From the NCBI GenBank assembly GCA_963820525.1, contig CAWGAA010000003.1:672001-736000 (forward strand): a stretch of 64,000 nt of DNA, read 5' to 3'. Of this stretch, positions 6,860-29,000 are shown piece by piece. The stretch comes from an uncultured Spirochaetota bacterium (lineage in GTDB: Bacteria; Spirochaetota; Spirochaetia; SZUA-6; Fen-1364). Each line of letters opens with the position of its first letter. Within the stretch, counting starts at the first letter, position 1. The notes beneath the pieces were generated by a model that saw nothing but the letters and a program-made list of their open reading frames with translations, made no database searches and was not told the origin of the DNA. The position numbers were made by a program, and so were the translations under genes.

Positions 6860-7567
6860 TCAACCGCTGCCTTCATCCGCACCTATCTCCGGCAGCACCT
6901 TCAGCCTGTAGCCCACTCCCGGCTCCGTTACCAGAAGCTCGGGGAGCTGCGGGGTCCGCTCTATCTTCTTTCGAAGCCCTGTGATGTAGACCCTGAGGTA
7001 GTTCGTGTCCTGCTCTGCGTTGGGGCCCCACACCTCCTTGAGGATCTGCCCGTGGGTGATGATCCTACCGGCATGCTGGACGAAGATCCGCACCAGGGCA
7101 TACTCCGTGGGGGTCAGCTTGACGGGAATGTCGGCCACCTTCACTTCGCGGTTGAGCAGGTCCACGGCGAGCCGGCCCGAGCGAAACACCTTTTCGGTCT
7201 CCGGGGGGCCGCGGTGGCGCAGCGCGACTTTCATGCGGGCGATCAGCTCCCCCGTGTTGAACGGCTTGATGAGGTAGTCGTCGGCCCCCGCGTCCAGAAG
7301 CCGCACGATCTCCTCCTCGGTGTTGCGCACCGAGAGGATAATGACGGGCACTGTAGACCACGTCCGCAGGCCGGAAAGGACTTCGGCCCCGTCCTTGTCC
7401 GGGAGGCCGAGGTCCAGAAGGACGACGTCCGGCTTCTTGCCCAGCATCATCTGCAGGCCGTCCTCCCCCGTTCCCGCCTCGTGCACCGCATAACCCTGCT
7501 TCTCCAGGCTGATTTTTAAAAGCCTGCGGATCTGAACCTCGTCGTCGATGACGAGCACGCTCATCAC
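6860..7567 (-). CDS. kdpE: KdpE response regulator (OmpR family)
   Basis: DDE, LDLGLPD, GADDYLIKPF, LTPTEY, EVWGP, YLRVYI, TEPGVGYR; coupled to kdpD. Confidence 0.93.
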   Translation of the reverse strand: MMSVLVIDDEVQIRRLLKISLEKQGYAVHEAGTGEDGLQMMLGKKPDVVLLDLGLPDKDGAEVLSGLRTWSTVPVIILSVRNTEEEIVRLLDAGADDYLIKPFNTGELIARMKVALRHRGPPETEKVFRSGRLAVDLLNREVKVADIPVKLTPTEYALVRIFVQHAGRIITHGQILKEVWGPNAEQDTNYLRVYITGLRKKIERTPQLPELLVTEPGVGYRLKVLPEIGADEGSG

Positions 7568-10254
7568 GACGCCGCCTCCTTGCCGGCGCCGGCGGCCGGC
7601 TCACGGACGCTGTTGGGAAGTGCGATCGCTATGGACAATCCACCCCGCCGGTTGATATAGGCTGAAATAATTCCCCCATGGGTTTCCACAATCCCCTTGC
7701 AGATCGAAAGCCCCAGCCCAACTCCCCCGGAGGTCGCCCTCTTTCCCCGGAAAAACATGTCGAACAGATGGGGAAGCTCATCGGAGGCGACGCCGGGGCC
7801 GGAGTCCGACACGGTGATGAGCACGTCCCTGCGGTTTCTCTCGACTGCAAGCTCTATGGGGGTGCCCGGGGGCGTGTAATGCACCGCATTCTGGACGATA
7901 TTGGTAAGGACCTGGACCATGAGGATGAAATCCACGGAAATGGGTGGAACATCTTCATCCACTTTCACCGTGAATGGATGGTCCGTGGTCTGCCGGCGAA
8001 GAGCGTCGGCCACGACGCTGGCCAGATCGAAGACGTCGGTGTCCGACCTCTTGAGCTTCATCATGCCCGACTCCAGGCGGCTCATGTTCAGGAGGTTCTC
8101 CACGATTCCGTTCAGCCTGTCCGTGGCCGTGAGGGTTTCCGTCAGGAGCATCTCCCGCGCATCGGGGTCCGCGCCGGTGGAGGAATCCATGAGCGCCGTT
8201 ATGGACCCCTTGATGGTGGTCAGGGGCGTCCGAAGCTCGTGCGATATCGTATTGAGGAGGATCTTGCTCAAGCGCTCCGATTCGCGCGCCATGAGGTTTT
8301 TCCGGTTCTCTTCGGCCAGGAGCTCCCGGCCGAGGGAGAGCGCGAGGGTCCGCCCGAGGGTTTGTAAAGATTCCTCGTGGTCGGGCATCCATTTCTTCTC
8401 CTCCGGCAGGCGGATGCCAAGCACACCGGCGGTCGAGTCGGGCGTGAGAAGCGGGATGTAGTGAAAGCGGGCCATGTGGAGCGTGTCGGTGTACCGCCCG
8501 CACGGCACCCTGTTGGCGAAACACCAGCGGGCCACGCTCTGCTCCTTCTCGTCCACCACGATGCCTCCGAGGGAAAAAGGGTTCGGGTCCAGCGTGTCTT
8601 GGTCCGCGGCGAAAAAAAGCAGGACTTCGGCCTCGAAGTACCGGGAGATGTGCTCCAGGCCAGTTCGGGCGATCTCCACCAGGCTCTGCTTGAAGGAGAG
8701 AGACTGCGACAAGTTGAAAAGGAGCGACAGCCTGTGCTGCCGGACGGAGAGCAGCTTCTGGCTCAACCTGAGGCGCGTCATCAGGAACGCCAGCGCGGCG
8801 GCGGTAATGAAGTAGAGGAACAGCATGAGGATGTCTTCAAGCTTCCTGATGTAGAAGGTGAAAGGCGGCGGAATGAACACGAGGTCCCAGAAAACCGCGC
8901 CAAGGGCGGCGGCCAGGAGAACCGCGATCCTGCTCACGAAAAACGCGAGGCCGATTACCGCCATGAGGTAGAGGATGCCGACTGAACGGTAGCCGATCAG
9001 GGGCAGGGCGACGAAGCCGACTCCCGTGACTAGCGCCAGGACGGCGAGCACCTTCAGGAGAGAGGCGCGCTCCGAGCGCAGGAAGGCGGGCAGCCGCACC
9101 CGGGCGTGGCGAAGGTCCATTCCCTTCTCCTGGACCACGGCGACGTCGATATCGCCGCTCGCCTCGATGACGCGATCCGTAACCGAAGGGCCGCGGAGGA
9201 GCCTGCGGCGCGTTGCCGGCCCGGGCTTGCCCATGACGATCTGGGAAATGTTGTTCGACCGCGCGTAGCCGACAATCGCCTCGGCGACACTCTCCGACGG
9301 TATCGCCACCACGCGCGCCCCCAGCTGCCGCGCGAGGTTCAGGTTTTTTCTGAGGCTTTCCTGATCCGCATCGCGGAGGGGCCGTCCCGTTTCGATGTAC
9401 AGGGCGGTCCACTCCGCCTTCAGGCTGAAGGCTCTCCGGCGCGTCCACCGAATGAGGTGAGCCGAGTTGGGGCTGGGGCTTATCGCTACCAGAAGGCGAT
9501 CTTCGGACCCCAGGGGGCCTTCCGGGCGCGTTTCGGTCCCGAAGCTCGACAGCTGATGGTTCACCATGAGGGCGGTATAGCGCAGCGACATCTCCCTCAG
9601 GGCGGTGAGCGTGCTCTTCTTGAAGAAGTTCTCCATGGCGGACTGCGCCATGTCCGCGGTATAGACCTTGCCTTCGGACAGGCGGTTGAGAAGCTCTTCG
9701 GGAGAAATATCGATGAGCACGACCTGGTCCGTAGCGTCGAAGACCGAGTCGGGCACCCGCTCGGCGACGGAGATGCCCGTGATCTCTTCTATTATATCCG
9801 CGAAGCTCTCCAGGTGCTGGACGTTCATCGTTGTGGAGACATCGATTCCCTGCTCCATGATCTCCAGGACGTCCTGGTAGCGCTTCCTGTTGCGCGTACC
9901 GGGCACGTTGGTGTGCGCCAGCTCGTCCACGAGCACCAGGTCCGGACGGCGGGAAATCACCGCGTCGACGTCCATCTCCTCGAGGAGCTTTCCCCGGTAT
10001 TCCACGCGCCTTCGGGGAACGGCCTCGAGGCCGACGGCGAGCTCTTCAGTCTCCTTGCGCTGATGAGTTTCGAGGTAGCCGACGACTACGTCGAGGCCTT
10101 CGGCGCGCTTCTGCCGCCCCTCCTTCAGCATGCCATAGGTCTTGCCAACTCCCGCCGCCATGCCGAAGAAGATCTTGAGCTTCCCCTTCCCGCTCTGCTC
10201 CCTCTCGGCCAGGCGAAGGAGGGCGTCAGGGTCCGGCCTCGCTCCATCAGTCAT
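7564..10254 (-). CDS. kdpD: Sensor histidine kinase KdpD
   Basis: RPDPDALL, KIFFGMAAGVGKTY, VDELAHTN, USP domain, 4 TM, GAF, SHELRTPL, HATPase; ATG 10254 with SD GAGG preferred over TTG 10296. Confidence 0.96.
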   Translation of the reverse strand: MTDGARPDPDALLRLAEREQSGKGKLKIFFGMAAGVGKTYGMLKEGRQKRAEGLDVVVGYLETHQRKETEELAVGLEAVPRRRVEYRGKLLEEMDVDAVISRRPDLVLVDELAHTNVPGTRNRKRYQDVLEIMEQGIDVSTTMNVQHLESFADIIEEITGISVAERVPDSVFDATDQVVLIDISPEELLNRLSEGKVYTADMAQSAMENFFKKSTLTALREMSLRYTALMVNHQLSSFGTETRPEGPLGSEDRLLVAISPSPNSAHLIRWTRRRAFSLKAEWTALYIETGRPLRDADQESLRKNLNLARQLGARVVAIPSESVAEAIVGYARSNNISQIVMGKPGPATRRRLLRGPSVTDRVIEASGDIDVAVVQEKGMDLRHARVRLPAFLRSERASLLKVLAVLALVTGVGFVALPLIGYRSVGILYLMAVIGLAFFVSRIAVLLAAALGAVFWDLVFIPPPFTFYIRKLEDILMLFLYFITAAALAFLMTRLRLSQKLLSVRQHRLSLLFNLSQSLSFKQSLVEIARTGLEHISRYFEAEVLLFFAADQDTLDPNPFSLGGIVVDEKEQSVARWCFANRVPCGRYTDTLHMARFHYIPLLTPDSTAGVLGIRLPEEKKWMPDHEESLQTLGRTLALSLGRELLAEENRKNLMARESERLSKILLNTISHELRTPLTTIKGSITALMDSSTGADPDAREMLLTETLTATDRLNGIVENLLNMSRLESGMMKLKRSDTDVFDLASVVADALRRQTTDHPFTVKVDEDVPPISVDFILMVQVLTNIVQNAVHYTPPGTPIELAVERNRRDVLITVSDSGPGVASDELPHLFDMFFRGKRATSGGVGLGLSICKGIVETHGGIISAYINRRGGLSIAIALPNSVREPAAGAGKEAAS

Positions 10255-10317
10255 TCGACGCCTCTTGGAGAATGATACAGCGCCGCGGCCCTCCAAGAAT
10301 AGTGCACGGACCGGCGC

Positions 10318-10887
10318 TTACTTCGGAAACTCCCTGTCGAGGGCCACGTTCAGCTCCAGCACGTTCACCCGCGGCTCTCCCAGAAAGCCGAGCTGGGACT
10401 GCCGTTCGAACCGCCGCACAAGGACCATGATGTCGCCGGCCTTTTGCGCTGCGAGATGCCGTGCCGCGGCCACGCGCGGCACCTGGAGCTCGGCCGCCTG
10501 CGGGCTGATGTTGGGGTCCAGGCCGCTTCCCGATGCAAAGAGCATGTCCATCGGCGGCTCGGTGCCGCCGTTCGCCTTTTTCCAATCCGCTTTGCGCTGT
10601 TCGAACTCCTTCTTCAGCTCCCCGCTGGTGTACCCGTAGTTGCTTGCCCCGGAGGAAGACGCGTCATACTTCACGGCGGACGGCCGCGGATGGAAGTAGG
10701 CGTCGCCCGCGAAGTCCTGCCCGATGAGCCGTGAGCCGACCACCTTCCCGTCACGGACCAGGAGGCTCCCCTGGGCCTTCTGCGGAAAGATCACGGCGCC
10801 GACCCCGGTCATGAGCAGGGGGTAGAGCCCTCCCGTAATGACCGTGAATACGACAAGGACGATTATTGAAGTCAGGAAGTGTTTCAT
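10318..10887 (-). CDS. kdpC: K+-transporting ATPase subunit C
   Basis: GS.LIGQ.F, YFHPRPSA, SGASNYG, ASGSGLDPNIS, GEPRVNVLELN; ATG 10887 with SD GGGAGG. Confidence 0.96.
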   Translation of the reverse strand: MKHFLTSIIVLVVFTVITGGLYPLLMTGVGAVIFPQKAQGSLLVRDGKVVGSRLIGQDFAGDAYFHPRPSAVKYDASSSGASNYGYTSGELKKEFEQRKADWKKANGGTEPPMDMLFASGSGLDPNISPQAAELQVPRVAAARHLAAQKAGDIMVLVRRFERQSQLGFLGEPRVNVLELNVALDREFPK

Positions 10888-10900
10888 GCCGATCCTCCCA

Positions 10901-12973
10901 TTACCCCAGCCCCAGAACGTGGACAAGCAGGTCAATAGCCTTTATCCCGAGAAACGGGGCTATTATTCCGCCTATCCCGTAGATCAAGAGGTTGCGCCGA
11001 AGAATCTTCGCCGCGCCGATGGGCCTGTATCTCACCCCGCGCAGCGCCAGCGGTATGAGGGCGATGATGATGAGCGCATTGAATATCACCGCGGAGAGGA
11101 TGGCACTCTGGGGTGAAGCCAATCGCATGATGTTCAACGCCCCAAGCGGTCCCACTCCCCCCGCCGCTGCGTACAACGAGAGAAACATGGCCGGAAGGAT
11201 GGCGAAGTACTTTGCAACATCATTGGCGATGCTGAAGGTCGTGAGCGCGCCCCGCGTCATGAGCTGCTCTTTTCCAACCTCGATGATGTCGATGAGCTTG
11301 GTGGGATTGGAATCGAGGTCCACCATGTTCCCCGCTTCCCTGGCCACCTGGGTGCCGGAGCTCATGGCCACCCCCACGTCGGCCTGCGCCAGGGCGGGGG
11401 CGTCGTTGGTGCCGTCTCCGATCATCGCCACCAGGTGGCCGGTCGCCTGCTCGGCCCTGATGCGCTCGAGCTTGGCCTGCGGGGTGGCCTCCGCGATAAA
11501 GTCATCCACCCCTGCCTCGGCGGCAATGGTGGCGGCGGTAAGCGGGTTGTCCCCCGTGATCATGATGGACCTGATGCCCATCTTTCGAAGGCGGAAGAGC
11601 CTCTCACGGATGCCGCCTTTAACGACATCCTTGAGGTAGATCACCCCCAGAATTTCCTTTCCCTGGGCTACGACGAGGGGGGTCCCCCCATCTGCGGAGA
11701 TCCTCTGCACCTCCCCGTCCACTTCCGCCGGGTATTTGCCGCCTGCCGCACAGACCCATTCCTTCACGGCTTCGGCGGCGCCCTTGCGAATGCTTTTCCG
11801 GTCATCCGCGAAATCCAGCCCGCTCATCCGTGTCTTTGCTGAGAACGGTACGAATTTGCCTCCGATCTCGGAGACGCTGGCCGTCTTCACCCCATAGGAA
11901 TGCCGGGCAAGATTTACGATCGAACGGCCCTCGGGAGTCTCGTCCGGAAGGCTGGCCAGGAGCGACGCTTCCGCCAGGACCCGCTCGCCCACTCCATCTG
12001 CGGGGTACAGCCTGGAGGCCATGCGGTTTCCCATGGTGACGGTGCCGGTCTTGTCCAGGAGCATCACGTCGATGTCTCCCGAGGCGTCGACCGCCCTGCC
12101 GCTCAGCGCCAGGACGTTTTTCTTCAAGAGACGGCTGACGCTGGAGATTCCGATGGCGGAAAGCAGAGCGCCGATCGTCGTGGGAATGAGACACACCAAA
12201 AGCGAGAACAAGACCGCTGGGGTGGCGAAGGCGCTCGTCCCCGACTGCTTCACGCTGTAATCGGAGAAGAACCAGAGGGTTCCGACGGCGGCGAGGAAAA
12301 TCAGGGAGAAAGCGGATAAAAGGATGAGCAGGGCTATCTCCCCCGGCGTCTTCTGCCGCGTGGCGTTTTCAACGAGGGAGATCATCCGGTCCACGAAGGT
12401 CTTTCCCTGTTCCGCGGTGATCTTCACGACGATCCTGTCGCTGATGACCTTTGTCCCGCCGGTCACGGCGCTCCTGTCTCCGCCGGACTCCCGGATCACG
12501 GGCGCGGACTCCCCCGTGATGGCGGATTCGTCGACGCTCGCGATGCCTTCCACGACCTCTCCGTCTCCGGGGATGACGTCACCCGCCTCGCATACAACAA
12601 GATCGCCCACGCCGAGCTCGGCGGAAGCGACCTTCTGCTCTTCGCCGCCCGGCGAAAGGCGCCGCGCGACCGTCTTTGTGCGCATGGCCCTGAGCGCATC
12701 GGCGCGCGCCTTGCCCTGGATTTCGGCCAGGGACTCCGAGAAGTTTGCGAACAGGACGGTGAACCACAGCCAGAGGGCGATCTGCAGGTTGAAGGGCGAA
12801 TACACCCCCCGCGCGGCATCGAGGGCAAACAGCACCGAGATGAACAGGGCCCCGATCCAGACCATGAACATGACGGGGTTTCTGATCTCGACCCGTGGAT
12901 CCAGCTTGAGGAAGGCCATTGCGGCAGCCCTCCGCAAGACGGGGAAGCTCCACAATCGGATTTCTTTTCTCAT
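10901..12973 (-). CDS. kdpB: K+-transporting ATPase subunit B (P-type ATPase)
   Basis: [48 protein letters not shown]. Confidence 0.98.
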
Positions 12974-13034: not shown

Positions 13035-14819
13035 TTAGAACAAGACTCCCTTGAGCGCCAGGAAATGCTCCACGATCGGCCCCAGGGTCAGCGCCGGCAG
13101 GAAGTTCAGGCCGGTGACGATGAGTATTGTCAGGACCAGGAGCACAACGAACGTGGCATTGTTCGTTTGAAAGGTGCCAACGCTCGCCGGAACCGGCGTT
13201 TTGGCTGCAAGGCTCCCCCCGATGGCGATCACGGGGACAATGACCACGAACCGTCCCAGCAGCATTGCGAATGCCCCTGCCACGTTGTAGAATACGGTAT
13301 TCGCGTTCAACCCCGCGAAAGCGCTTCCGTTATTGCCTACCATCGATGCAAAAGCGTAGAGGATCTCGGACAACCCATGAGGACCTCCATTGTTCAGTGA
13401 AGAGAGGCCGGCCTTGGTGACTGAAGCTGCGGCCGCGAGGAACAGGATGGGCAGGCCCTGGGCCACGATTGCAAGCACGGAAAGCTGGACTTCGCGCGTC
13501 TCGATCTTCTTTCCCAAGTATTCCGGGGTCCTGCCCACCATGAGGCCGGCTATGAAAACCGTAATGAAAAGAAAGACGAGTAGCCCGTACATCCCTGCCC
13601 CAAGGCCGCCGAAGACCACCTCCCCCAGCATCATGTTGATCATGGGGATCATGCCCCCAAGGGGGGAAAAGCTGTCGTGCATGGAATTGACCGACCCATT
13701 GGAGACCACCGTGGTGGCCTCGGCCCAGAGTGCGCTGGCCGAGATTCCGAAGCGCACCTCCTTGCCCTCCATGGATCCGTATCCCCCGGAGATGCCATTG
13801 AAGCCATACTCCGCGAAGAGGATCGCGATGAGCCCCATGGCGAACATCGCGGTCTTGGCCGCGAACAGGGCGTAACCCTGGCTCTTGGACTTCACCATCC
13901 GGCCGAAGAGGAAGGGAATCGCCGTGGGGACGAGCAGGATGGCCAGAAGCTCCAGGAAGTTGCTGAAGGGCGTGGGGTTCTCGAAGGGGTGAGCCGAGTT
14001 CGTCCCGAAAAATCCTCCCCCGTTGCTTCCCAGCTGCTTGATGGCGATCTGGGATGCCGCCGGCCCCATGGGGATGATCTGCTGATTGCCCTCAACGGTT
14101 GTCGCGGTCACGTACCCGGAGAAGCTCTGGATGACCCCCTGGCTCATGAGGAGAACTGCAAGGATGATCGACAGCGGGAGAAGGATATAGAGAATGGTGC
14201 GGACATTGTCCACCCAGAAGTTGCCAACGGTCACGCGGTTTTCATCCGCCGTCTTGGGCACCGGCGCACCCGCCTGTTCCCTGTAATGGAGCCTGGCCGA
14301 ATACCTGTCCACCAAGCTTGAAAGCCCGCCCCTGGGCTTGTTCCGTATGCCGCGGATCAGGGCGAGCATGGCCGCCATGCCGGTTGCCGCGCTCAGGAAA
14401 TTATGGACGGCCAGGCCCGCCATCTGGGAGAGGTAGCTGGCGCTCACCTCCCCCGGGTAGCTCTGCCAGTTCGTGTTGGTCATGAAGCTGACTGCCGTAT
14501 TCAGGGCCTGGTGCAACGACATATTGTCCACGTTGTGCGGATTCAGCGGAAGCCATTTCTGCGTCATCAGGAGCGCCATGAGGGTGGCGAACCCGACGGC
14601 GTTGAAGACAAGCAGCGCCGCCAGGTACTGCTTCCAGTTCATCTGCCGGTCCGCGTCTACACCGCATATCCTGTAGATGAACCGCTCCACGGGAGAGAGG
14701 AACGACAGGATATGGCGCTCCCCCTCGTAGACCCTGGCCATGTACTTGCCCAGGAAAGGCGCCAGTCCGAAAACCAGGGCGAGATAAACGGCGAGTTGGA
14801 TCCCGTTGGCCGTGCTCAT
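13035..14819 (-). CDS. kdpA: K+-transporting ATPase subunit A
   Basis: [39 protein letters not shown] selectivity-filter motifs. Confidence 0.98.
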
Positions 14820-14855: not shown

Positions 14856-14942
14856 CTAAAACTTTTCCGGGCGTACGATCGAGTACGCGAGGTAGACCAG
14901 GAGAAACAGCCCGATCGCCGCCGAAAAAAACGCTACTGTCAT
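14856..14942 (-). CDS. kdpF: K+-transporting ATPase subunit F (28 aa, not in ORF track)
   Basis: Manual translation MTVAFFSAAIGLFLLVYLAYSIVRPEKF*, matching the KdpF YL.y.l..PEKF signature; directly upstream of kdpA. Confidence 0.93.
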   Translation of the reverse strand: MTVAFFSAAIGLFLLVYLAYSIVRPEKF

Positions 14943-14948
14943 GATTAA

Positions 14949-15027
14949 AGGGTAAGTGATCCTCCGCCGGCCGTATATGTTCGACGGGGCTAAAGTTTGC
15001 GCGCTCCACGCTAAAAAGCCGCTAGAA
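14949..15027 (-). promoter_or_regulatory. kdpF promoter: -10 TACCCT plus triple GCTA box (candidate KdpE site)
   Basis: GCTA at 14989, 15010 and 15021 (+ strand); same spacing and same 47-nt offset to ATG as the trkA promoter. Confidence 0.65.
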
Positions 15028-15082
15028 TCCGCACAGGGACAACACCCTGGCCGGTCAGCCGTTTTAGAGGCATTTTCTACTC

Positions 15083-16516
15083 ATGGCCATGGGCTCGGTG
15101 AGCACGCATGACAAGGCTCTCGGGATAAACATCGATGCCGCGCGCTACGGAACCTTCGCGGAGATCGGCGCCGGGCAGGAGGTTGCTCGATGGTTCTTCC
15201 ACGTCGGAGGAGCGGCGGGCACCGTGGCCAAGACCATCTCGGCATACGACATGGCGGTGTCTGACGCCGTCTACGGCTCCACCGAGCGCTACGTCAGCCG
15301 GCAGCGGCTCCAGGCAATGCTGGATCACGAGTGGGCCCTTCTCATAGAGCGGTTGGACGATGTGCGGGGCAGGGACACCGCATTCTTCGTCTTCGCCGAC
15401 ACCGTCACCGCCAAGAGCTACACCCGGCAGGAGGAAGGCCACGGCTGGCTGGGAATCCGCTTCCAGACCGAGCCGCGCAGCCAGGCGTCCCAGATCATCA
15501 TCCACGCACGCATGTGGGACACCGATAATGCGCGCCAGCAGGAGGCGTTGGGGATCCTCGGCGTCAACCTGATCTATGGGGCGTTCCACGAGTCCGGCCG
15601 GCCCGAGGCGCTCATCGCTTCGCTCATGGACGAGCTCACCCGTGACCGCATGGAAGTGGACATGATCAAGCTCTCGGGGCCGGCGTTCGACGGCGTGGAC
15701 AACCGCCTCATGAGCCTCCAGCTGGTCCAGCAGCGGCTCACCAACGCGGCCATGTTCGCCCCCGACGGCGAGGTGGTGGAGCCCGCGGAGCTTCTCTACA
15801 ACCGGCCCGTTCTGATCGAGCGAGGAAGCTTCCGCCCCATCACCCGCGTCATCCTCGACATGCTGGAGCGCTCGCTTCGGCAGATGCAGGAAGCGGAGGC
15901 AGGAGAGCCTGTTGTCCTCATGGAGATGACGCTTCGAAATCTCATGAGGCTGCATGAGGAAGTGGACCATGCCGATTTCCTGGCCCGCATGGATACCCTC
16001 TGCGCCCTGGGAAAGACCGTCATGGTCTCCAACTACTCCCGATTCCATAACGTCACAACGTATCTCAGGCGCTATACTCACCGCCGGATCGTCATGACGC
16101 TCGGCGTTCCGACCCTGGCCGAGCTTCTGGAGGAGAGCCATTACCGGGATCTTCCCGGCGGCATTCTCGACGCGCTCGGACGGCTTTTCAACGGTCCCGC
16201 TACTCTCTTCGTCTACCCCTGGAAGAACGGCCCGACAGGAGAGGTCGTCACCGCGGAGACGTTCCGCCCGCCCGCCTCCCTGGCTCATCTCTACCGCCAC
16301 CTTCTCGAAAACCATCTCATAGAATCGATCCGCAATGTTCCCGAGGCGGATCTCTCCACGCTTCCCGCGGACGTTCTTGAAAGGCTCCAATCGGGAGATC
16401 CCTCCTGGGAGAGGCTCGTGCCCGCGGAGGCGGCGGGAGTGATCAAGAAGCAGAGGCTCTTCGGCTATCGCGGGGATAAGCAGGTACTCGATACTCTGGA
16501 CAGTGAAGGCAGATAA
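15083..16516 (+). CDS. Conserved protein with CinA/PncC-like N-terminus and nucleotidyltransferase-like (NadD/NadM/CoaD fold) C-terminus
   Basis: GTFAEIGAGQEVARWFF..GGAAGTVAKTISAYD N-domain; RGSFRPIT and GDPSWERLVP...IKKQRLFGY C-domain; cytoplasmic, no signal peptide. Confidence 0.65.
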   Translation: MAMGSVSTHDKALGINIDAARYGTFAEIGAGQEVARWFFHVGGAAGTVAKTISAYDMAVSDAVYGSTERYVSRQRLQAMLDHEWALLIERLDDVRGRDTAFFVFADTVTAKSYTRQEEGHGWLGIRFQTEPRSQASQIIIHARMWDTDNARQQEALGILGVNLIYGAFHESGRPEALIASLMDELTRDRMEVDMIKLSGPAFDGVDNRLMSLQLVQQRLTNAAMFAPDGEVVEPAELLYNRPVLIERGSFRPITRVILDMLERSLRQMQEAEAGEPVVLMEMTLRNLMRLHEEVDHADFLARMDTLCALGKTVMVSNYSRFHNVTTYLRRYTHRRIVMTLGVPTLAELLEESHYRDLPGGILDALGRLFNGPATLFVYPWKNGPTGEVVTAETFRPPASLAHLYRHLLENHLIESIRNVPEADLSTLPADVLERLQSGDPSWERLVPAEAAGVIKKQRLFGYRGDKQVLDTLDSEGR

Positions 16517-16569
16517 GGGTGAACGAGGAACAGCAGTGCCCACAGTGAGGGAGGGATCCTCCGCCGCGG

Positions 16570-16605
16570 CATCATGATGATCATCATGATGATGATAATG
16601 ATGAT
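16570..16605. repeat. (ATC/ATG)n simple repeat containing a perfect 22-bp palindrome
   Basis: CATCATGATGATCATCATGATG (16570-16591) is its own reverse complement; continues as ATGATAATGATGAT. Confidence 0.8.
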
Positions 16606-16656
16606 TTACTAAATTATAATGTTTGACAAAACAGTAAAATTACTGTATTTAGTAAA
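16605..16656 (+). promoter_or_regulatory. Promoter with nested inverted repeats upstream of the AbiEi-like gene
   Basis: TTGACA 16623-16628, N17, TATTTA 16646-16651; inner IR ACAGTAA-aa-TTACTGT 16631-16646; outer IR TTTACTAAA 16605-16613 / TTTAGTAAA 16648-16656. Confidence 0.7.
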
Positions 16657-16658
16657 CC

Positions 16659-17711
16659 ATGCGCGCCGATGGCTATCGAAAAGAACTTGTTGGTAAGGTC
16701 CCCGGGATTCTCACTCATCTCCTTGGTGCAAACAAAGACGTAAGGATCCAATCGGACGAGCGTACTGGCCCCGACCTCGTAATAACCGCAAGCGGCAAGA
16801 CCTTTGTCATAGAGTTCAAACAATCTACGGGAACAGCCACCATTGCTGCTGCCGCAAGGCAGCTCTTGTCCTACCGCAAGCGGACTGCGAAACAGGTGGT
16901 CCTGCTCATTGCTGTTCCGTTTATGGGTGAAGCCGGACGGAGAGTATGCGAGGAACTGGGGGTTGGGTGGATTGACCTTAGCGGCAATGCTCATATCGTG
17001 GCGTCAGGCCTTCGCATAATCGTGGAAGGGCGGCCGAATCGATTTCTATCGGCAGGGAGGCCGCCTAATCTTTTTGCGCCAAAGAGCTCCCGGGTTGCTC
17101 GTTGGCTTATCATGCATCCCGATCAGTCAATTACTCAACGCGAACTCGCCAGGACCGTCGATATGGGGGAAGGCTTTATCAGCCGCATTATCTCTCGTCT
17201 CGAACAAGAGGGCTATGTCATTCGTGAGAATGGATCGGCAATCCGATCGAAAAACCCCTCACTCTTACTGGATGCATGGCAGGAACGCTACCAGTTTTCC
17301 AAACACATGGTTCATCAGGGCTATATTTCAGCACGTTCGGGCGATGCGCTTCTTAAATTTCTTCATAATGAGTTTGCCTCGTGGAAGGTAGAATATGCTG
17401 CGACGGGGCTAGCTGCAGCGTGGATGTTTACCAAGTTTGTGGCCTTTCGGACTGTCACGGTCTATGTTCCGCACGAACCCACGGATGAGCTACTGCAAGG
17501 GCTTGCATACAGTGATGATCCCAGAGGTGCGAATACTTGGCTGGTAGTCCCAAATGACAAGGGGGTTTTCCATGGAGCAGGCGAGAAGGAGGGAATACGC
17601 TGTGTCCATCCTGTGCAGGCGTACCTTGATCTGAAGGATCAGCCTGAACGAGCAATGGAGGCCGCCGAACGGCTGCGCAAAGAGTATTTGAACTGGGGGA
17701 CGAATGGCTAA
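16659..17711 (+). CDS. AbiEi-like antitoxin/transcriptional regulator (type IV TA)
   Basis: N-terminal PD...IEFK restriction-endonuclease-like fold, D.SGNA, central wHTH (TQRELAR...GFISRIISRLEQEGY), C-terminal ATGLAAA and VHPVQAYLDL...ERAMEAAERL. Confidence 0.75.
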   Translation: MRADGYRKELVGKVPGILTHLLGANKDVRIQSDERTGPDLVITASGKTFVIEFKQSTGTATIAAAARQLLSYRKRTAKQVVLLIAVPFMGEAGRRVCEELGVGWIDLSGNAHIVASGLRIIVEGRPNRFLSAGRPPNLFAPKSSRVARWLIMHPDQSITQRELARTVDMGEGFISRIISRLEQEGYVIRENGSAIRSKNPSLLLDAWQERYQFSKHMVHQGYISARSGDALLKFLHNEFASWKVEYAATGLAAAWMFTKFVAFRTVTVYVPHEPTDELLQGLAYSDDPRGANTWLVVPNDKGVFHGAGEKEGIRCVHPVQAYLDLKDQPERAMEAAERLRKEYLNWGTNG

Positions 17712-18567
17712 AAAGCCCCAGCGAGCAAACGAGTATAAGAGCGAGCAAGTTGAACTGGTAAGAGCAACCTGTTTATACATCGCGACCAAATTCGGCGATT
17801 TAATGGATGACGAGGTTGTGGTGATCGGTGGGCTGGTCCCATCATTGTTGATTGATTCAAAAGAACTCCCCGAGGGGATCTCCGCGCATGTTGGAACCAT
17901 GGATTTGGATGTGGGACTGAAACTCGCTGTTCTCGATGAGGGGCGGTACCGCACGCTGACCGGGCGATTGCGCGAAGCAGGCTTTGAGCAAGATCGCAAC
18001 GACGAGGGAAAGCCGACGCGACAGCGATGGCTGCTGAAAGAGCCTACCTCTGTGACTGTGGACTTTCTTATTCCACCCTCCTGCAAAACAGATCGAGGAG
18101 GGAGCCTTCGCAACATTGAAAAGGACTTTGCAGCCGTGATTGCGCCCGGGCTCGCACTGGCATTTCAAGACAGGCGTCAGGTTACTCTGGAAGGAGTGAC
18201 CATAATGGGCGAAAAAGCAAGCCGTAAGATATGGGTTTGTGGCCCGGGTGCATTTGTTATCCTGAAAGCTCTCTCCTTTCGAGAGCGCGGCGAGGGCAAG
18301 GACGCCTATGACTTGTACTACGTTGTGCGTAATTTTGGGCAGGGCGTTGAAGATGTGGCAGCGTCTTTTCGGCCGCTGCTTCAAGACAGTGACGCGATAC
18401 AGGCTGTTAAAATTCTGCGAGGGGACTTTCTTAATCTTGACGGGCTCGGCCCCCACCGCGTTGCTCAATTCTTGCTAGGTAAGCGGGATGATGCAGTTCA
18501 AGCTGATGTTGCAGGCTTTATTCGACAGTTGCTCAACAAATGCGATCTGTTAAGCAAGGGCCGATAG
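17704..18567 (+). CDS. AbiEii-like nucleotidyltransferase toxin
   Basis: VVIGGLVP, GTMDLD, VDFL, LKALSF.ER..GKDAYDLYY; overlaps upstream gene by 8 nt. Confidence 0.75.
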   Translation: MAKKPQRANEYKSEQVELVRATCLYIATKFGDLMDDEVVVIGGLVPSLLIDSKELPEGISAHVGTMDLDVGLKLAVLDEGRYRTLTGRLREAGFEQDRNDEGKPTRQRWLLKEPTSVTVDFLIPPSCKTDRGGSLRNIEKDFAAVIAPGLALAFQDRRQVTLEGVTIMGEKASRKIWVCGPGAFVILKALSFRERGEGKDAYDLYYVVRNFGQGVEDVAASFRPLLQDSDAIQAVKILRGDFLNLDGLGPHRVAQFLLGKRDDAVQADVAGFIRQLLNKCDLLSKGR

Positions 18568-18575
18568 CAGGACCG

Positions 18576-19055
18576 TCAGGCGCCGCCCTTGCTCTCCGCT
18601 TTCCTCCAGAGGAGGAAAGCGCCGGCCGAGGTGAGAAGAAGGCCGCACGCGGCAATCATCCGAGGGAGCACCAAGGGGTGGCTCACCCGCTCTCCCGCTG
18701 CTTCGACAACGAGCGCCGTTGCGTGGATATCCATGTCGCCGCCGTGCTCGCGGCAGCTCCTGTTGAAGATACCGCTCACCCGCACCCGGTCCCCCCTTTG
18801 GTAATACGATCCGAAGCTGCGGCCGGCGGTGAACAGGACGCGGGGGAGCCACACGCCGAGGGCACCGGCGCCGTCGCTCACGTTCACCCAGAGGTGATCC
18901 CCGCGCGGCATCGGGTCCCCAATAAGCTCGCCGCTGAACGTGAGAAGCTCTCCGTCGTGCGCTTTGGCGTTTTCGATCAGATCGGCGCTCGATGCCTGGG
19001 CAAAGAGCGGAATCGAGATAAAAGCACCGAACAGTATCAGAGCGCCGCGCCTCAC
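18576..19055 (-). CDS. Exported OB-fold-like protein with C-terminal TM anchor (Trk operon companion)
   Basis: GTG 19055 overlaps trkH TGA (GTGA), SD AGGAGG; signal peptide, GELIGD.M.RGD..WVNVSD, GDRVRVSG, CREHGGDMDIH, C-terminal TM. Confidence 0.75.
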   Translation of the reverse strand: MRRGALILFGAFISIPLFAQASSADLIENAKAHDGELLTFSGELIGDPMPRGDHLWVNVSDGAGALGVWLPRVLFTAGRSFGSYYQRGDRVRVSGIFNRSCREHGGDMDIHATALVVEAAGERVSHPLVLPRMIAACGLLLTSAGAFLLWRKAESKGGA

Positions 19056-20557
19056 GACTTCCTCCTGACTGTGGAGACGATGAAGCCGGCGAGCGCCAGG
19101 ACCGCCACGAACTCCAGCCTCCCCGCCCACATGCCGAAGATGTAGGTCGCCTTCATAACCGCGGGCATGGAAGGGGCCGTGACGCCGATGGAAAGCCCGA
19201 CGTTTCCCGCAACCGATGCGGACTCGAACGCCGCGCTGAGCAGGGGATAGCCGCAGAGGTTGCCCACGAGGGTATTGAGCGCGAAGAGGGCCATATACAT
19301 GATCACGATAAGCGCGGCGCTGCGCACCTGCGCCTCGCCGAGGGTCTGGTCCTTGAGGTAGTGGAAGCGCTGGACGAACACCGCGGATGCCGGCTTCAAG
19401 AGCCTGCGGGCTTCCTGCACAAGGGCGTTCCAGAGGATGCCGATGCGCAGGCCCTTGAACCCGCCCGCCGTCGAGCAGGCGCTCCCCCCGAAGAGCATCG
19501 CGAGGATCATGGCGAAAAGCGCCACGTCCCCCCATTCCGTCGCGAGCTGGCGCGCATAAACCGTCATGAAACCGGTGGTGGTGTGCCCCGAGACGAGCTG
19601 AAAGAAGCCCTTTCGAAACAGGGCCACCGCGCCAGGGTACACGCCGAGCTTGACGAGGCCGTAGCAGGCCACGACGGTGAGCACGATGAGGGTGGTGGAA
19701 AAGGAGACCGTCTCGATATTCCTGGCGATCTCTTTCCTGTTTCCCGTCCACACGGCATGGTGCAGCGCGAAGTTGAAGGAACCGATGACAAAGAACACGA
19801 GGCCCGTCACCTCGTAGAGAGCGCTGTGATAATAGAGGATATTCTGTGACATCGGGGCGAAGCCCCCCGTGCTCCATGCCGCCATGTAGACCCACAGGCC
19901 ATGGAGCAGGCCGGCTACGGGCGGAAGCCCGATCGCCATCCCGGCTGCCCAGAGAGCGGCGGTGCCGACGGCGAGGTACACGAGGCTTATCTTCCAGATG
20001 GCCCGCGCCGTGTGAAGCACGCTGGGGAAAAGCCGCTCGTCCTTGGCCTCGCCGACGTAGAGCTTGTATCCTCCCGCGGCATCCTTCACCAGGAAGCTCA
20101 GGGCGAGCACGATGACGCCCTGCCCTCCGATAAAGGTGAGCAGGTGACGCCACATGTTCACGCTTCGCGAGACGTGGTCGAGGTCCTGGATGAGCGTGAG
20201 GCCCGTGGTCGTGAAGCCGCTCATCACGTCGAACATGCAGTCGAGGTAGCCGCCGTAGTGGCCGCTCAGGCCGTACGGGATCGCCGCCATGGCCATGACG
20301 GCGAGCCAGGAGAATGCTGCGGTCACCATGCCGTGCATCCACGTGGGCCGCGCGCCTTTGGCTCCCAGGGCCGCAAGCCCGCAGCCAACGGTGAGCGCGG
20401 CGCCCAGGCCGATCGTGAAATCGAATGCCGCGGCCCACTCGCCGAACGCCAGCGCGGTGGCAAGCGGCACGAGCATCAGAAGGCCGACGCCGACTATGAC
20501 CTTCCCCGTGTACGAGAGGATGATCCTGAAATCATGCGCGCGCGGCGAAGATATCAT
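19052..20557 (-). CDS. trkH: TrkH-family K+ uptake membrane protein
   Basis: Pore-loop motifs SGFTTTG, STGGF, TTTGF, GNVGLS; GGSACSTAGGFK; MWAGRLE. Confidence 0.92.
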   Translation of the reverse strand: MISSPRAHDFRIILSYTGKVIVGVGLLMLVPLATALAFGEWAAAFDFTIGLGAALTVGCGLAALGAKGARPTWMHGMVTAAFSWLAVMAMAAIPYGLSGHYGGYLDCMFDVMSGFTTTGLTLIQDLDHVSRSVNMWRHLLTFIGGQGVIVLALSFLVKDAAGGYKLYVGEAKDERLFPSVLHTARAIWKISLVYLAVGTAALWAAGMAIGLPPVAGLLHGLWVYMAAWSTGGFAPMSQNILYYHSALYEVTGLVFFVIGSFNFALHHAVWTGNRKEIARNIETVSFSTTLIVLTVVACYGLVKLGVYPGAVALFRKGFFQLVSGHTTTGFMTVYARQLATEWGDVALFAMILAMLFGGSACSTAGGFKGLRIGILWNALVQEARRLLKPASAVFVQRFHYLKDQTLGEAQVRSAALIVIMYMALFALNTLVGNLCGYPLLSAAFESASVAGNVGLSIGVTAPSMPAVMKATYIFGMWAGRLEFVAVLALAGFIVSTVRRKS

Positions 20558-20560
20558 CTT

Positions 20561-20698
20561 TTACAGGAGTTCCAACAGGATGCAGACAAGCAAGCCGGCA
20601 AGGGCCAGGAGCAGCACGAAGCCCGCCTCAATAAGAATGCCCAGGCACATCCCGCCATCCCGCAGGCCGGAGCCGACGCTCTTCACGAGCCGCTTCAT
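20561..20698 (-). CDS. 45-aa single-TM protein inside the trk operon (not in ORF track)
   Basis: ATGA overlap with trkA stop; MKRLVKSVGSGLRDGGMCLGILIEAGFVLLLALAGLLVCILLELL*; stop is 3 nt before trkH ATG. Confidence 0.7.
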   Translation of the reverse strand: MKRLVKSVGSGLRDGGMCLGILIEAGFVLLLALAGLLVCILLELL

Positions 20699-21360
20699 CC
20701 CGACTCTCCCAGGAGGAGCTTCCTCAGGGGCTCCAGGGAAGCCCGCCGGGCCAGGGCGAAGATCCTGTCACCCGCCTCGATAACCGTTTTCCCGCGCGGG
20801 AAAAAGATCCTCCCGTCGTGGATCACGGTGATGAGCACGCATTCCTCGGGAAGGCTGAGCTGGGAAACGGCCACGCCGGCGACGGGGGAGTCTTCCTTCA
20901 CCTCGACTTCCGTTATCTCCGCGTCCCCCTGCTGAAAGATCGAGAAAAACCGCATCCCGGTGAGCGGGAGGGCGTTCTCGATCATCTGGGCCGCCAGGGC
21001 GGTCGTGCTTACCGTGGCGTCCACTCCAAGGAGCTTGAAAATAGATTGGTTGTTCGGGTTGCTCACGCGGGCGATGGTGTTGGGGGTCTTGAAATGCTTC
21101 TTGGCGAGCTGGCAGATGACGAGGTTCTCCTCGTCCCTGCCGGTGAGCGCCACCACGTAGCCCGCTTCCTGCGCCCCTGCGTCCCGGAGCGTCTCGATAT
21201 CTGTTCCGTCGCCGCTTGTCACGGTTATCTCGAGGTCTTCCGCCACGACGCGGCACCGGCTCTCGTCCTTTTCGACGATGCCCACGGAGTACCGGGAAGC
21301 GAGGAGGGTCTTGGCGAGGTAGTAACCGACATTGCCGCAGCCGACGATGAGGATGTACAT
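20695..21360 (-). CDS. trkA: TrkA/KtrA-family RCK subunit (RCK_N + RCK_C)
   Basis: IVGCGNVG, GDGTD, DEENL, IARV, RCK_C with P.G.T.IEAGD. Confidence 0.92.
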   Translation of the reverse strand: MYILIVGCGNVGYYLAKTLLASRYSVGIVEKDESRCRVVAEDLEITVTSGDGTDIETLRDAGAQEAGYVVALTGRDEENLVICQLAKKHFKTPNTIARVSNPNNQSIFKLLGVDATVSTTALAAQMIENALPLTGMRFFSIFQQGDAEITEVEVKEDSPVAGVAVSQLSLPEECVLITVIHDGRIFFPRGKTVIEAGDRIFALARRASLEPLRKLLLGESG

Positions 21361-21370
21361 GACGTGCGCC

Positions 21371-21979
21371 TCAGCCGCGGTGGTTTCTGAGAAGGATCAG
21401 AGTATCGTCTTTTTCGATTGGCCGTCCCTGATCGATATCCGGCGATCCATCGCGGCGGACAACTCCGACGAGCCTGCGTTCATCGCCAAGATCGATCTTT
21501 CCCGCCGGCCTGCCTACCCATTCCGGAAGCGGCCTGACTCCGACCAGGTCGGGGTCGATGTAGCCTGCCAGGGGCGCGAAGAGGTTTTTTTGAATGAGCC
21601 CGAGGATCTGGTTGATGCCCGTCGTTGTGGGGCATACCGTGCTCAATCCCATGCCCTTGTAGAACTTTTCCCTCTCGCCGTCCGACACGCGCGCAAGAAC
21701 CATGGGAACATGAAAGACTTCCTTTGCGATCTGGATGGCCATGATGTTGAGGTTATCGTCCGCCGTCGCCGCGACGAAAAGCTGGGCTTTTTCGATCCCC
21801 GCCTTCTTGAGAACGTCCTCGTCTATGGGGCTTCCGCTCACCGTCACGCCGTCGAAATCGTTTCCCAGGCGTTTGAGGTCGATGGATTCGGCCACCACGA
21901 CGACGTCCTTGCCCTGGGCGGAGAGAACCTTCGCGAGCCCCGCGCCGAGCCGGCCGCAGCCCGCCACGATAACGAACAT
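21371..21979 (-). CDS. trkA: Second TrkA/KtrA-family RCK subunit
   Basis: MFVIVAGCGRLG start at 21979; AGIEKA, DDNLNI, LARV, CPT. Confidence 0.88.
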   Translation of the reverse strand: MFVIVAGCGRLGAGLAKVLSAQGKDVVVVAESIDLKRLGNDFDGVTVSGSPIDEDVLKKAGIEKAQLFVAATADDNLNIMAIQIAKEVFHVPMVLARVSDGEREKFYKGMGLSTVCPTTTGINQILGLIQKNLFAPLAGYIDPDLVGVRPLPEWVGRPAGKIDLGDERRLVGVVRRDGSPDIDQGRPIEKDDTLILLRNHRG

Positions 21980-21985
21980 ATCTCC

Positions 21986-22066
21986 ATCATAGACGTGAGG
22001 CCCGGCGAAGAACCATTCGCGGGATGCTAATGTTTTACTCCGGGACGCTAGGAAAGCGCTAAAAAG
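21986..22066 (-). promoter_or_regulatory. trk promoter: -10 TATGAT plus triple GCTA box (candidate KdpE site)
   Basis: GCTA at 22026, 22047 and 22058; TATGAT at 21991-21986, 6 nt before ATG. Confidence 0.65.
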
Positions 22067-26018: not shown

Positions 26019-29000
26019 ATGACACTGCGCGAAAAACTCGGCTACCGGCCCATGGAGCTCGCCTTCGGGACGAGCGGCCTGCGCGGCCTCGTGCGTGACA
26101 TCACGAACCTCGAAGCGTATATCGGGACGCGGGGGTTTCTCGCCCACCTTCTGGATTCCTCACAGGTGAGGCCCGGAGACACAGTGTACATCGCCGGAGA
26201 TCTTCGCCCAAGCACGGACTGCCTCGTGAGCGGCGAAGAGGGAAGAGGCGAGATCGCTCAAGCAGCGGCCAAGGCGGTGGAGGCCGCCGGACTTCGCGTC
26301 GGCTACGTGGGCAAGATCCCCACTCCGGCCTTGATGCTCTACGCCATGCGCCGCTCTTCGTCAAGCATCATGGTGACGGGGAGTCACATCCCCTTTGACA
26401 GGAACGGCATCAAGTTCAACAAGCCCTCCGGGGAGATCCTCAAATCCGACGAGGCTCACATCCTCGCGGCCATGAAGAGGATCAGGGCCGCGGAGTACGG
26501 CAGGCCGGCGGAAAAAAGCTTCTTCGACTCGAGCGGGATGCTCAAGCCTGCCCACAGGAAGCCCCTCCCCCCCATCGACGAGCGGGCCCGAAAAGAGTAT
26601 ACGGAGCGCTACGTCGCCGCGTTCCCCAAGGGAGCACTGGCCGGATGCCGGATCCTTGTCTGGCAGCATTCCGCCGTCGGACGCGACATCCTCACGGAAA
26701 TTCTACATAAGTTGGGGGCCGATGCGGTTCCCGTGGGAAGGAGCGACGTGTTCGTGCCCGTGGACACGGAAGCCGTCGGCAGGGAAACCCTCGAGCTGAT
26801 CCAGGGCCTGGTTGATGCCAATGACGGAGCCTCCATCGGCGCGGCGGTTTCCACCGATGGAGACGGCGACAGGCCCCTCGTCCTCGGCGTGGAGCGGGGC
26901 AGGGTCCGCTTCTTTCCCGGCGACCTCCTGGGCCTGGCTGCCGCGGATTTCCTGGGCGCCAGAAGGATAGCCGTTCCCATAAGCGTTAATGACGCGGTGG
27001 ACATCGCCTTCTCCGCAAAAGGAGTCGTACCGGTAAAAACCCGTATCGGCTCACCCTATGTCGTGGCTGCCATGGAGGAAGTGGGGTGGGAAGCCAACGG
27101 GGGATTTCTCACCGCCGCCCCCATCGCCGTGCCCGGCGGAGGGACCCTGGAACCGCTCCCCACCCGCGACGCGGTGCTTCCCATCCTTTCGGTTCTTTCT
27201 GCGTCGCTGGGGCGCGGCAAGAGCCTGGCCGCCCTCTTCGATCTGCTGCCCCCGCGTTTCGGACGGTCAGCCCTGCTCAGGGAGTTTCCCCGCGAGAAAT
27301 CCCTCGCCATTGTCGAGCTGCTCTCCCCTCGCCGCCTGAGCCTGACCGAGGCGAGATTTTCCAAGGGGAGCGTCTCGGCGCTGAAAACAGGCACAGGCTG
27401 CGAAGAGCTTGCCGCGGGCAGCCCGGCCGCCGCGGAGCTGGCCGCGCTTCGGACCTTCATCGGGAAGTATTTCACCCCGGGGGATGGCTTTGGCGAGGTC
27501 TCATGGATCAATTGGCTTGACGGGGTGCGGATCGGGTTTGCCAACGGGGACGTGGCCCATATCCGCCCCTCGGGCAACGCACCGGAGCTCAGGCTCTACG
27601 CCAACGCGGACAGCCAGGAGCGCGCGGACCTCATAGCCTCCCTGGGCACGCGGGAGGGCGGAATCCTCAGGCGGCTGGAGGCGCACGCTGAAGAGCAGTG
27701 GGCAATAGCGGCGTTCAGGGCCCGCCCCGCCGCCGTGCATCTTCAGGGCGCCATCCAGAGCTACTCCTGGGGCGGATCCCGGTTTATCCCCGAGCTGACA
27801 GGCATGGACAACAGCGAAGGCCGCCCCTTCGCCGAGCTGTGGATCGGTGCGCATCCTCGCGCCCCTGCCCTCGCCCGGCTGCCGGTTCCGCAAGCAGGGC
27901 GGCCGGGAGAACATGCAGGCGTCATGCCAGTGGCGCTGGATCGGCTCATAGCGGAGGCTGGGGAGGCCGTTCTCGGTGCCGCCGTTTCGCGCGGCTTCGG
28001 CGGGAAGCTTCCGTACCTCCTGAAGGTGCTGGACGCCCGCTCCATGCTCTCCATTCAGGCGCATCCCTCAAAGGCCCAGGCCGAGGCCGGCTTTGCCCGC
28101 GAGACTGCGGCAGGCATCCCCATCACCGCCGCCAACAGGACGTACGCGGACGAGAATCACAAGCCCGAGGTCCACGTCGCCCTCACCGACTTCTGGATGC
28201 TTCACGGCTTCCGGCGGCTGGAGCAGATCGCATCGATCCTGCGGTCAAAGGGCGGCAGAGCCGCGCTCCGAGCGCCGGAAATCGCAAAGGCCATGCCGGA
28301 TTTCGGAGCTCGCCTGAAAGACGCGGGACCGGATGAGCGGGCCAGGCGCGCGCTCCTTCGAGAGCTGTATGAGAGACTCATGACCATGCCGCAGGAGGAG
28401 GTGGACCGCGTCCTGAAGCCGCTTGTCGAAAGACTCCGAAGGGCCCAGCCTTCGGACAAGGATTCTCCCGACTATTGGGCGCTGGAAGCGGCCCGCTCTT
28501 TCACGCGCGACGGACATCTGGACCGCGGCGTCTTCTCCATCTATCTTCTCAACCTGGTCCGTTTGCGGCCCGGCCAGGGCACCTACCAGCCCTCCGGGAC
28601 GCTCCACGCATACCTGGAAGGGGCGAATGTCGAGCTCATGGCAAACTCCGACAATGTGCTTCGCGGAGGGCTCACGACAAAGCATGTAGACACGGCAGAG
28701 CTTCTGGCCATCCTCACCTTCGAAAGCGGCGCGCCTCCCGTTCTGGAAGGGCAGGAAATCTCTGAAACCGAGAGGGTTTACACTGCCCCGGCCCGAGAGT
28801 TTCTCCTGTCGCGCATTGAAGCTGCCCCTCATATCCCGCACAGGGCACGCGGGTCTCACGGACCGGACTGTCTCATCGTGATGGAGGGCGAGGCGGAGCT
28901 GAAGGCCGCCGGCGATCTGCTCCCTCTCAAGCGGGGAGGGATCGCACTTGTTCCCGCCGGGCTCCCCTACACCATCGAGTCACGCGCGGGCACGGCCGTC

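Follow-up and report, generated by a model that had tools for sequence, protein, structure and literature searches.

Escherichia coli KdpE is described as binding two hexamers, TTTATA and TTTACA, separated by 5 bp at -72 to -50 of kdpFABC, with the TTTA core needed for binding (PMC3264566). It is essentially a single-target regulator (PMC5934670; bioRxiv 10.1101/2020.06.23.168344), and the Trk/Ktr channels are described as constitutive (PMC3610689, PMC3747578, PMC5934670); Caulobacter is without Trk (bioRxiv 10.1101/2023.07.05.547876). The 22-bp KdpE site of Mycobacterium smegmatis PkdpF, judged by its authors to be unlike that of E. coli, reads CTTGATG-N4-CTTTACG in reverse complement (PMC5401905). 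A cyclic di-AMP (c-di-AMP, ydaO) riboswitch controls kimA, and kdpFABC in Bacillus thuringiensis, and is predicted at ktr, trk and kup; riboswitch and KdpDE are called mutually exclusive at kdp operons (PMC6488665). Because riboswitch control of ktr and trk is known or predicted, a regulated Trk/Ktr system is not unprecedented. The literature searched yielded no account of Trk or Ktr being controlled by KdpE. Here we describe a 64,000-nucleotide stretch of contig CAWGAA010000003.1 (positions 672,001 to 736,000; the window) from an uncultured Spirochaetota bacterium (GCA_963820525.1; genome G000), in which a kdpFABC-kdpDE operon and a trkA1-trkA2-orfX-trkH-orfY operon are preceded by the same three-part repeat, hereafter the box. 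We consider it likely, at a probability of about 0.85, that KdpE would activate both operons through the two boxes when potassium is short.

On the plus strand, the tetramer GCTA stands at 14989, 15010 and 15021 ahead of kdp and at 22026, 22047 and 22058 ahead of trk, that is, at offsets 0, +21 and +32 in both cases, and each box begins 47 nt from a minus-strand ATG (kdpF at 14942, trkA1 at 21979). The earlier note on this DNA had reported this arrangement, and it is exclusive to these promoters: GCTA-N17-GCTA-N7-GCTA has exactly two matches in the source genome (5,045,671 bases, both strands, 10.09 million positions), both in the window. Read on the coding strand, both promoters carry half-sites of consensus YTTARYG at 0, 11 and 32 and a degenerate element at 43, followed by a -10-like TAnnnT that lies 39 nt past the proximal TTA core and ends 6 nt before the ATG, where the note had placed it. 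The elements are as follows (all on the minus strand).

15009..15027: kdp distal half-site pair, TTCTAGCG / TTTTAGCG, with an 11-bp period, at -85 to -67 from the kdpF ATG; present in 18/18 relatives
14977..14995: kdp proximal half-site CTTTAGCC (14988-14995) and degenerate fourth element (14977-14984)
14949..14954: predicted kdp -10, TACCCT, 6 nt before the kdpF ATG, consistent with a leaderless start
22046..22064: trk distal half-site pair, TTTTAGCG / TCCTAGCG, at -85 to -67 from the trkA1 ATG; top-scoring matrix site of the genome
22014..22032: trk proximal half-site CATTAGCA (22025-22032) and degenerate fourth element (22014-22021)
21986..21991: predicted trk -10, TATGAT, spaced 39 nt from the proximal TTA core and 6 nt from the trkA1 ATG

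To rank these sites independently of their own sequence, we scanned the genome with a position weight matrix trained on the kdpF promoters of 18 relatives, leaving the G000 sequence out of training. The trk site came first at 34.8 bits and the kdp site second at 34.4, and the next site reached 13.2, so that this genome-wide scan yielded no further regulon member scoring near the top two. Comparison of the two promoters shows matching bases at 19 of the 24 positions within the boxes and at 20 of the 66 beyond them, a concentration of identity in the boxes that is the pattern expected from selection on them. Neither promoter gave a match in a scan for the sigma-70 consensus, which requires a good -35 and is hence uninformative.

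The box shares with the E. coli site its position upstream of kdpF, a TT/TTA core and direct repeats at an 11-bp period (6 bp plus a 5-bp spacer). It differs in having three clear half-sites and a degenerate fourth rather than two, in half-sites that end in GCG or ACG, and in a kdpF that is probably leaderless. The closer likeness is to M. smegmatis, whose site has the same 7-4-7 shape as YTTARYG in reverse complement, although it consists of a single pair, is followed by a 120-nt leader, belongs to a SigF promoter and stands in an organism in which trk is not induced by low potassium (PMC5401905). The description of the site as not E. coli-like, made in the earlier note, thus did not hold, since both the period and the TTA core are retained. 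Given this resemblance to mapped E. coli and M. smegmatis sites, the box is, as far as its sequence tells, a variant KdpE-type operator and not a new motif.

The regulator and its presumptive targets are encoded by the following genes (all on the minus strand).

14856..14942: kdpF, 28 aa; PF09604 and TIGR02115 over cut-off
13035-14819: kdpA; TIGR00680 over cut-off
10901-12973: kdpB; TIGR01497 over cut-off
10318-10935: kdpC; TIGR00681 over cut-off
7564..10296: kdpD, full length, with KdpD, Usp, DUF4118, GAF, HisKA and HATPase domains
6860..7567: kdpE, OmpR-family response regulator; best NCBIfam match KdpE, at 229 bits under its cut-off of 325
21371..21979: trkA1, TrkA_N RCK protein, 202 aa; PF02254
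20695..21360: trkA2, TrkA_N plus TrkA_C, 221 aa; PF02254 and PF02080
20561..20698: orfX, 45-aa hydrophobic peptide
19052..20557: trkH, potassium channel subunit, 501 aa; PF02386 at 141 bits against a cut-off of 27
18576..19055: orfY, 159 aa, predicted to form an OB-fold flanked by a helix at each terminus; in this branch it comes after trkH

As in E. coli, KdpE is of the OmpR family and kdpDE lies 3' of kdpFABC. Aligned to PDB 4KNY, the G000 protein keeps R193, R200 and T215, the residues named as DNA contacts of E. coli KdpE (PMC3264566). These conserved contact residues, together with the likeness to known sites, lead us to interpret the boxes as half-sites for KdpE that share a face of the helix. 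KdpD would sense potassium shortage and KdpE would become phosphorylated; phosphorylated KdpE would then occupy both distal half-sites and the proximal one, all on that same face and immediately 5' of the -35 position, and recruit RNA polymerase at the kdp and trk promoters, from which transcripts in G000 would probably start at or beside the ATG. With leaderless transcripts, the sites would lie at -85 to -67 and at -53 to -46, compared with -72 to -50 in E. coli. The trk promoter thus predicts inducible expression, and the strong second site before a Trk operon sets this genome apart from E. coli, with its one main target and constitutive Trk.

The trk operon encodes both a TrkH subunit and an RCK-domain TrkA partner, the latter in two genes. 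Its TrkH carries TTTG, STGG, TTTG and GNVG with invariant glycines (alignment A1), which we take to be the pore-loop filter motifs; the cultured Hydrogenispora ethanolica has a TrkH that is 70% identical (P0089). Like other Trk/Ktr channels it thus pairs a TrkH pore protein with RCK regulators, but it is unlike the usual ones in its two separate single-RCK genes, its extra conserved small membrane genes orfX and orfY, and its predicted KdpE-type promoter. A small open reading frame like orfX lies between trkA2 and trkH in all eight related loci inspected. The model of OrfY has a pLDDT (predicted local distance difference test) score of 90.7, and its top Foldseek matches are tRNA synthetases and OB-fold proteins; residues C100, H103, D108 and H110 are invariant in 34 aligned sequences. 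As companions of this TrkH branch, OrfX and OrfY are candidate accessory subunits.

To follow the kdp box across relatives, KdpA was searched in 61 genomes and matched in 20, 18 of them from genus g3 of the same family as G000; the 18 loci in which a script located kdpF form the kdpF set. All 18 promoters have three half-sites at about -83, -72 and -51 with consensus YTTARYG, and the degenerate fourth element, 11 bp after the proximal box, shows A, A and T at offsets 13-15 in 17, 17 and 18 of them. The more distant kdpF of G034, which lies outside the set, scores low (4.8). No TrkH was found in any of 21 g3 genomes, and these closest kdp relatives could therefore test the kdpF box only.

The same promoters bear on translation starts. 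Defined as a -10 hexamer 5-7 nt before the start codon without a Shine-Dalgarno sequence, leaderless architecture is seen in 16 of the 18 relatives and at both G000 sites: TAnnnT-N6-ATG occurs in 15 and N7 in one, and an SD-like 4-mer in none. In G000 itself, trkA1 has GGAG just 2 nt before its ATG. Across the genome, the TAnnnT offset peaks at 6 nt (53 of 2580 long open reading frames, against 39 at 7 nt, 46 at 9 nt and 8-34 at most others). Many trk relatives have an unchanged distance from box to -10, followed by a leader with a Shine-Dalgarno-like sequence. The earlier note's proposal of leaderless promoters therefore fits G000 and most kdpF relatives, but leaderless starts play no mechanistic part. 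What mostly holds its place is the -10: of 26 clade-A trk promoters, 20 have TAnnnT 37-39 nt past the proximal core, leader or no leader. This links the hexamer with the operator and speaks for activation in the geometry also seen at kdpF.

For the trk box, we assembled 92 loci (8 genome loci, 4 regions and the best 80 of 438 metagenome matches), of which 50 with both trkA genes and more than 200 nt upstream were kept; the other 42 and the duplicate L151 were dropped. The g3 kdpF sites supplied a pooled half-site matrix for scoring the promoters, and the threshold was 8, a score reached at 87 of the 10.09 million positions of G000. Twelve of the 50 loci score at least 8; kdpD and/or kdpE lie downstream in 11, and in the twelfth the contig ends inside trkH. 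In a TrkH tree, box-bearing loci fall into two clades, each with a support of 1.00, and within these the box is kept before this type of trk operon wherever kdpD-kdpE adjoin. The conservation that the earlier note had asked for is thus found at both operons. Other branches are without the box: none of seven loci in a third group (class of G066) has it before trk, and none of 400 other genomes in an evenly drawn sample of the phylum has this TrkH type at E <= 1e-100.

We then fixed the matrix and searched 301 genomes of another order. The operon was found in 21, and 19 remained as a held-out set once two already-used genomes were dropped. Of these, 18 were scorable (one has no upstream DNA; one further locus repeats L073), and all 18 promoters score 18.9-33.7, with the rest of each locus at 11.8 or below. 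KdpE is present in 18 of the 19; in 13 of them its gene shares a contig with trk, at a distance of about 6 kb or less. We retrieved 12 of these 13 regions, and every one has box, trkA1, trkA2, trkH, orfY, kdpD and kdpE; in 11 of the 12 (among L216-L227 and L142), the trk-linked KdpD begins close to the Usp domain, its N-terminal KdpD domain being absent. KdpA exceeds its cut-off in 3 of the 19 genomes. No KdpA was found in G061-G064 or in G001, G003 and G004 (60, 94 and 99% complete), all with trk beside kdpD. The genomes in these KdpA searches are incomplete drafts, so that KdpA is to be read as not found rather than as proven absent. This Trk branch travels with kdpD-kdpE, often where no pump is found.

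Two variations on the layout accompany these loci. In the clade-B operons L062-L065, the first gene is orfZ, encoding a 170-aa protein of unknown kind; the half-sites are TTGACG, the form to which the M. smegmatis site is nearest, with a clear fourth site, and in three of the four the -10 lies at 27 nt, one helical turn closer than in clade A. A second box stands before the kdpD unit at L055:7372, L073:10037 and L058:17455 (minus strand); in L055 and L073 a short open reading frame for a basic product of about 57-59 aa comes next. This second box possibly reflects autoregulation after pump loss.

Several observations weigh against activation of both operons by KdpE. Strict TTTA is found in just three of the six G000 half-sites, and their 3' bases differ from those of E. 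coli TTTATA/TTTACA. Among the 38 loci below the threshold, L080, L081, L113 and L123 are box-less although this trk type lies close to kdpD- or kdpE-like genes there, which speaks against a strict link, and a model-free search of these four for repeats spaced by 11 and 32 gave nothing convincing; L054 has kdpDE and a visible TTGA-type box that scores only 4.7. Since box-bearing loci are confined to two clades and one ktrB case, the counts are not independent events. The cases in which KdpA was not found come from incomplete genomes. Exact matches to the pattern number 25 in 92 genomes, and four of them lie at genes unrelated to potassium, so that such repeats are not unique to KdpE; a reversed-pattern control gave 23 scattered matches in the same 92 genomes, which puts the four at chance level. 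The 17 kdpF matches among the 25 are circular, as the pattern was derived from those sites, and were not counted as support.

A further point comes from M. smegmatis, where trk genes go down rather than up under potassium limitation (PMC5401905). KdpE might accordingly bind both boxes yet repress or just tune trk, so that in low potassium the cell would exchange its low-affinity channel for the pump. Staphylococcus aureus offers parallels, its KdpE binding several non-kdp promoters (PMC3610689) and, in one study as cited in PMC3747578, repressing kdpFABC. We regard repression as improbable: the boxes lie upstream of the core promoter, the -10 geometry is the same at kdpF and trk (39 nt each), and 16 of the 19 held-out genomes yielded no pump for such an exchange. 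The boxes might also have a different reader: G000 has nine Trans_reg_C matches over cut-off, TTAAY-like repeats occur at unrelated genes in the four pattern matches above, and the truncated KdpD proteins linked to trk could sense something else. That another OmpR-family regulator, or a non-potassium signal through a KdpE paralogue, reads both boxes nevertheless seems quite unlikely, as the box tracks kdpF and kdpDE-linked potassium channel operons in two orders and is not found at trk loci without adjacent kdpDE, and the KdpD of G000 is full length. Both boxes also lie in divergent intergenic regions, 7 kb apart, as they would if the trk box were a non-functional relic of promoter duplication or rearrangement, or if it served the divergent genes (the hypothetical at 15083, the SDR gene at 22191). 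Conservation largely refutes this very unlikely account: between the two copies, conservation is limited to the box positions, relatives differ in the DNA 5' of the box while orientation and spacing to the potassium gene are constant, and over 25 further loci have retained the trk box. Activation of both operons by KdpE remains our preferred reading.

A metagenome contig, L071, shows how the two operons may once have been joined. It reads without interruption box-trkA1-trkA2-trkH-orfY-box-kdpF-A-B...kdpD-kdpE, with orfY running directly into the kdp promoter, and over the part available its identity to G000 is 79% for TrkH, 78% for KdpB and 73% for KdpE. G000 has the same order plus a block between orfY and the kdp promoter. 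The ancestral cassette was likely box-trk-orfY-box-kdpFABC-kdpDE, as in L071, and we infer that the block in G000 is a later insertion that split it. The block comprises the following (all on the plus strand).

15083..18567: the whole opposite-strand insert between the trk and kdp operons, not present in L071
15083-16516: 477-aa hypothetical protein, part of the insert
16659-18567: AbiEi-like helix-turn-helix gene (PF09952, slightly above cut-off) and, overlapping it, a 287-aa gene without a family match

The overlapping pair has a GC content of 50-54% against about 61%, and PADLOC returned weak matches only; it is probably an inserted type IV toxin-antitoxin-like pair. A strong sigma-70-like promoter precedes it at 16592-16620. 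Just before this promoter and 3' of the hypothetical gene, positions 16570-16604 form a (C/G)AT triplet run that reads as a His-rich stretch on the minus strand. Elsewhere in the window, 26019-29039 (plus strand) encodes a 1006-aa fusion of a phosphohexomutase-like part and a class I mannose-6-phosphate isomerase.

The box is not confined to this trk type. In G057 it precedes a ktrB unrelated to this trk and followed by kdpD-kdpE, which would place a second channel family under the same control; no KdpA was found in this genome (78% complete). The array (L185:4764-4850, on G057:C23) has six half-sites (0, 11, 32, 43, 64, 75), and the KdpD encoded there is without the N-terminal domain. Conversely, two operons of the trk type seen in G000 have no box but a c-di-AMP riboswitch (RF00379) immediately in front, at L059:1732-1864 and L060:8266-8402; the genome of L059 has kdpA, kdpD and kdpE elsewhere. 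As a general alternative the riboswitch was found in just 2 of 68 loci scanned, which leaves most box-less loci without an identifiable control element. Like the riboswitch, the box would control potassium importers beyond Kdp, but G000 would use a two-component operator on Trk rather than an RNA switch. The second trk region of G000 scores at most 1.6, and its box-less trkH is probably a housekeeping channel.

c-di-AMP is a ligand of some KdpD and RCK proteins. G000 has two DAC-domain matches (C2:708354 and C1:1670444), which suggest that the organism probably makes c-di-AMP. Among other repeats seen, L186:8564-11215 (G013:C36) has an array of four perfect CTTAATG sites next to the gene for an APC-type transporter; incomplete kdp and kdpD genes, whose boxes stand back to back, adjoin it. 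In three g3 genomes (L169, L172 and L173), the genes for a sigma-70 factor and a membrane protein have conserved TTAAYG repeats between them, probably another OmpR-family site.

A wider proposal, to which we would give slightly less than even odds, is that KdpDE serves primarily as a Trk/Ktr regulator in several lineages, spirochaete and other uncultured ones. The cassette box-trkA1-trkA2-orfX-trkH-orfY-kdpD-kdpE, its KdpD often without the N-terminal domain, would then provide inducible, ATP-free uptake at low potassium with two extra subunits, replacing the Kdp pump, in a channel family that swaps KdpE boxes and c-di-AMP riboswitches. With one operator type at both operons, the textbook split between an inducible Kdp under KdpDE and a constitutive Trk/Ktr would be crossed, and relatives retain operator, Trk and kdpDE where no pump is found. 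This provides a candidate target for some kdpDE pairs that occur without kdpABC. Two promoters in one genome allow a test of a single regulator, and the natural KdpD variants without the N-terminal domain may help to show which part of the protein senses potassium. What the locus predicts, from its sequence, is a rewiring of known parts.

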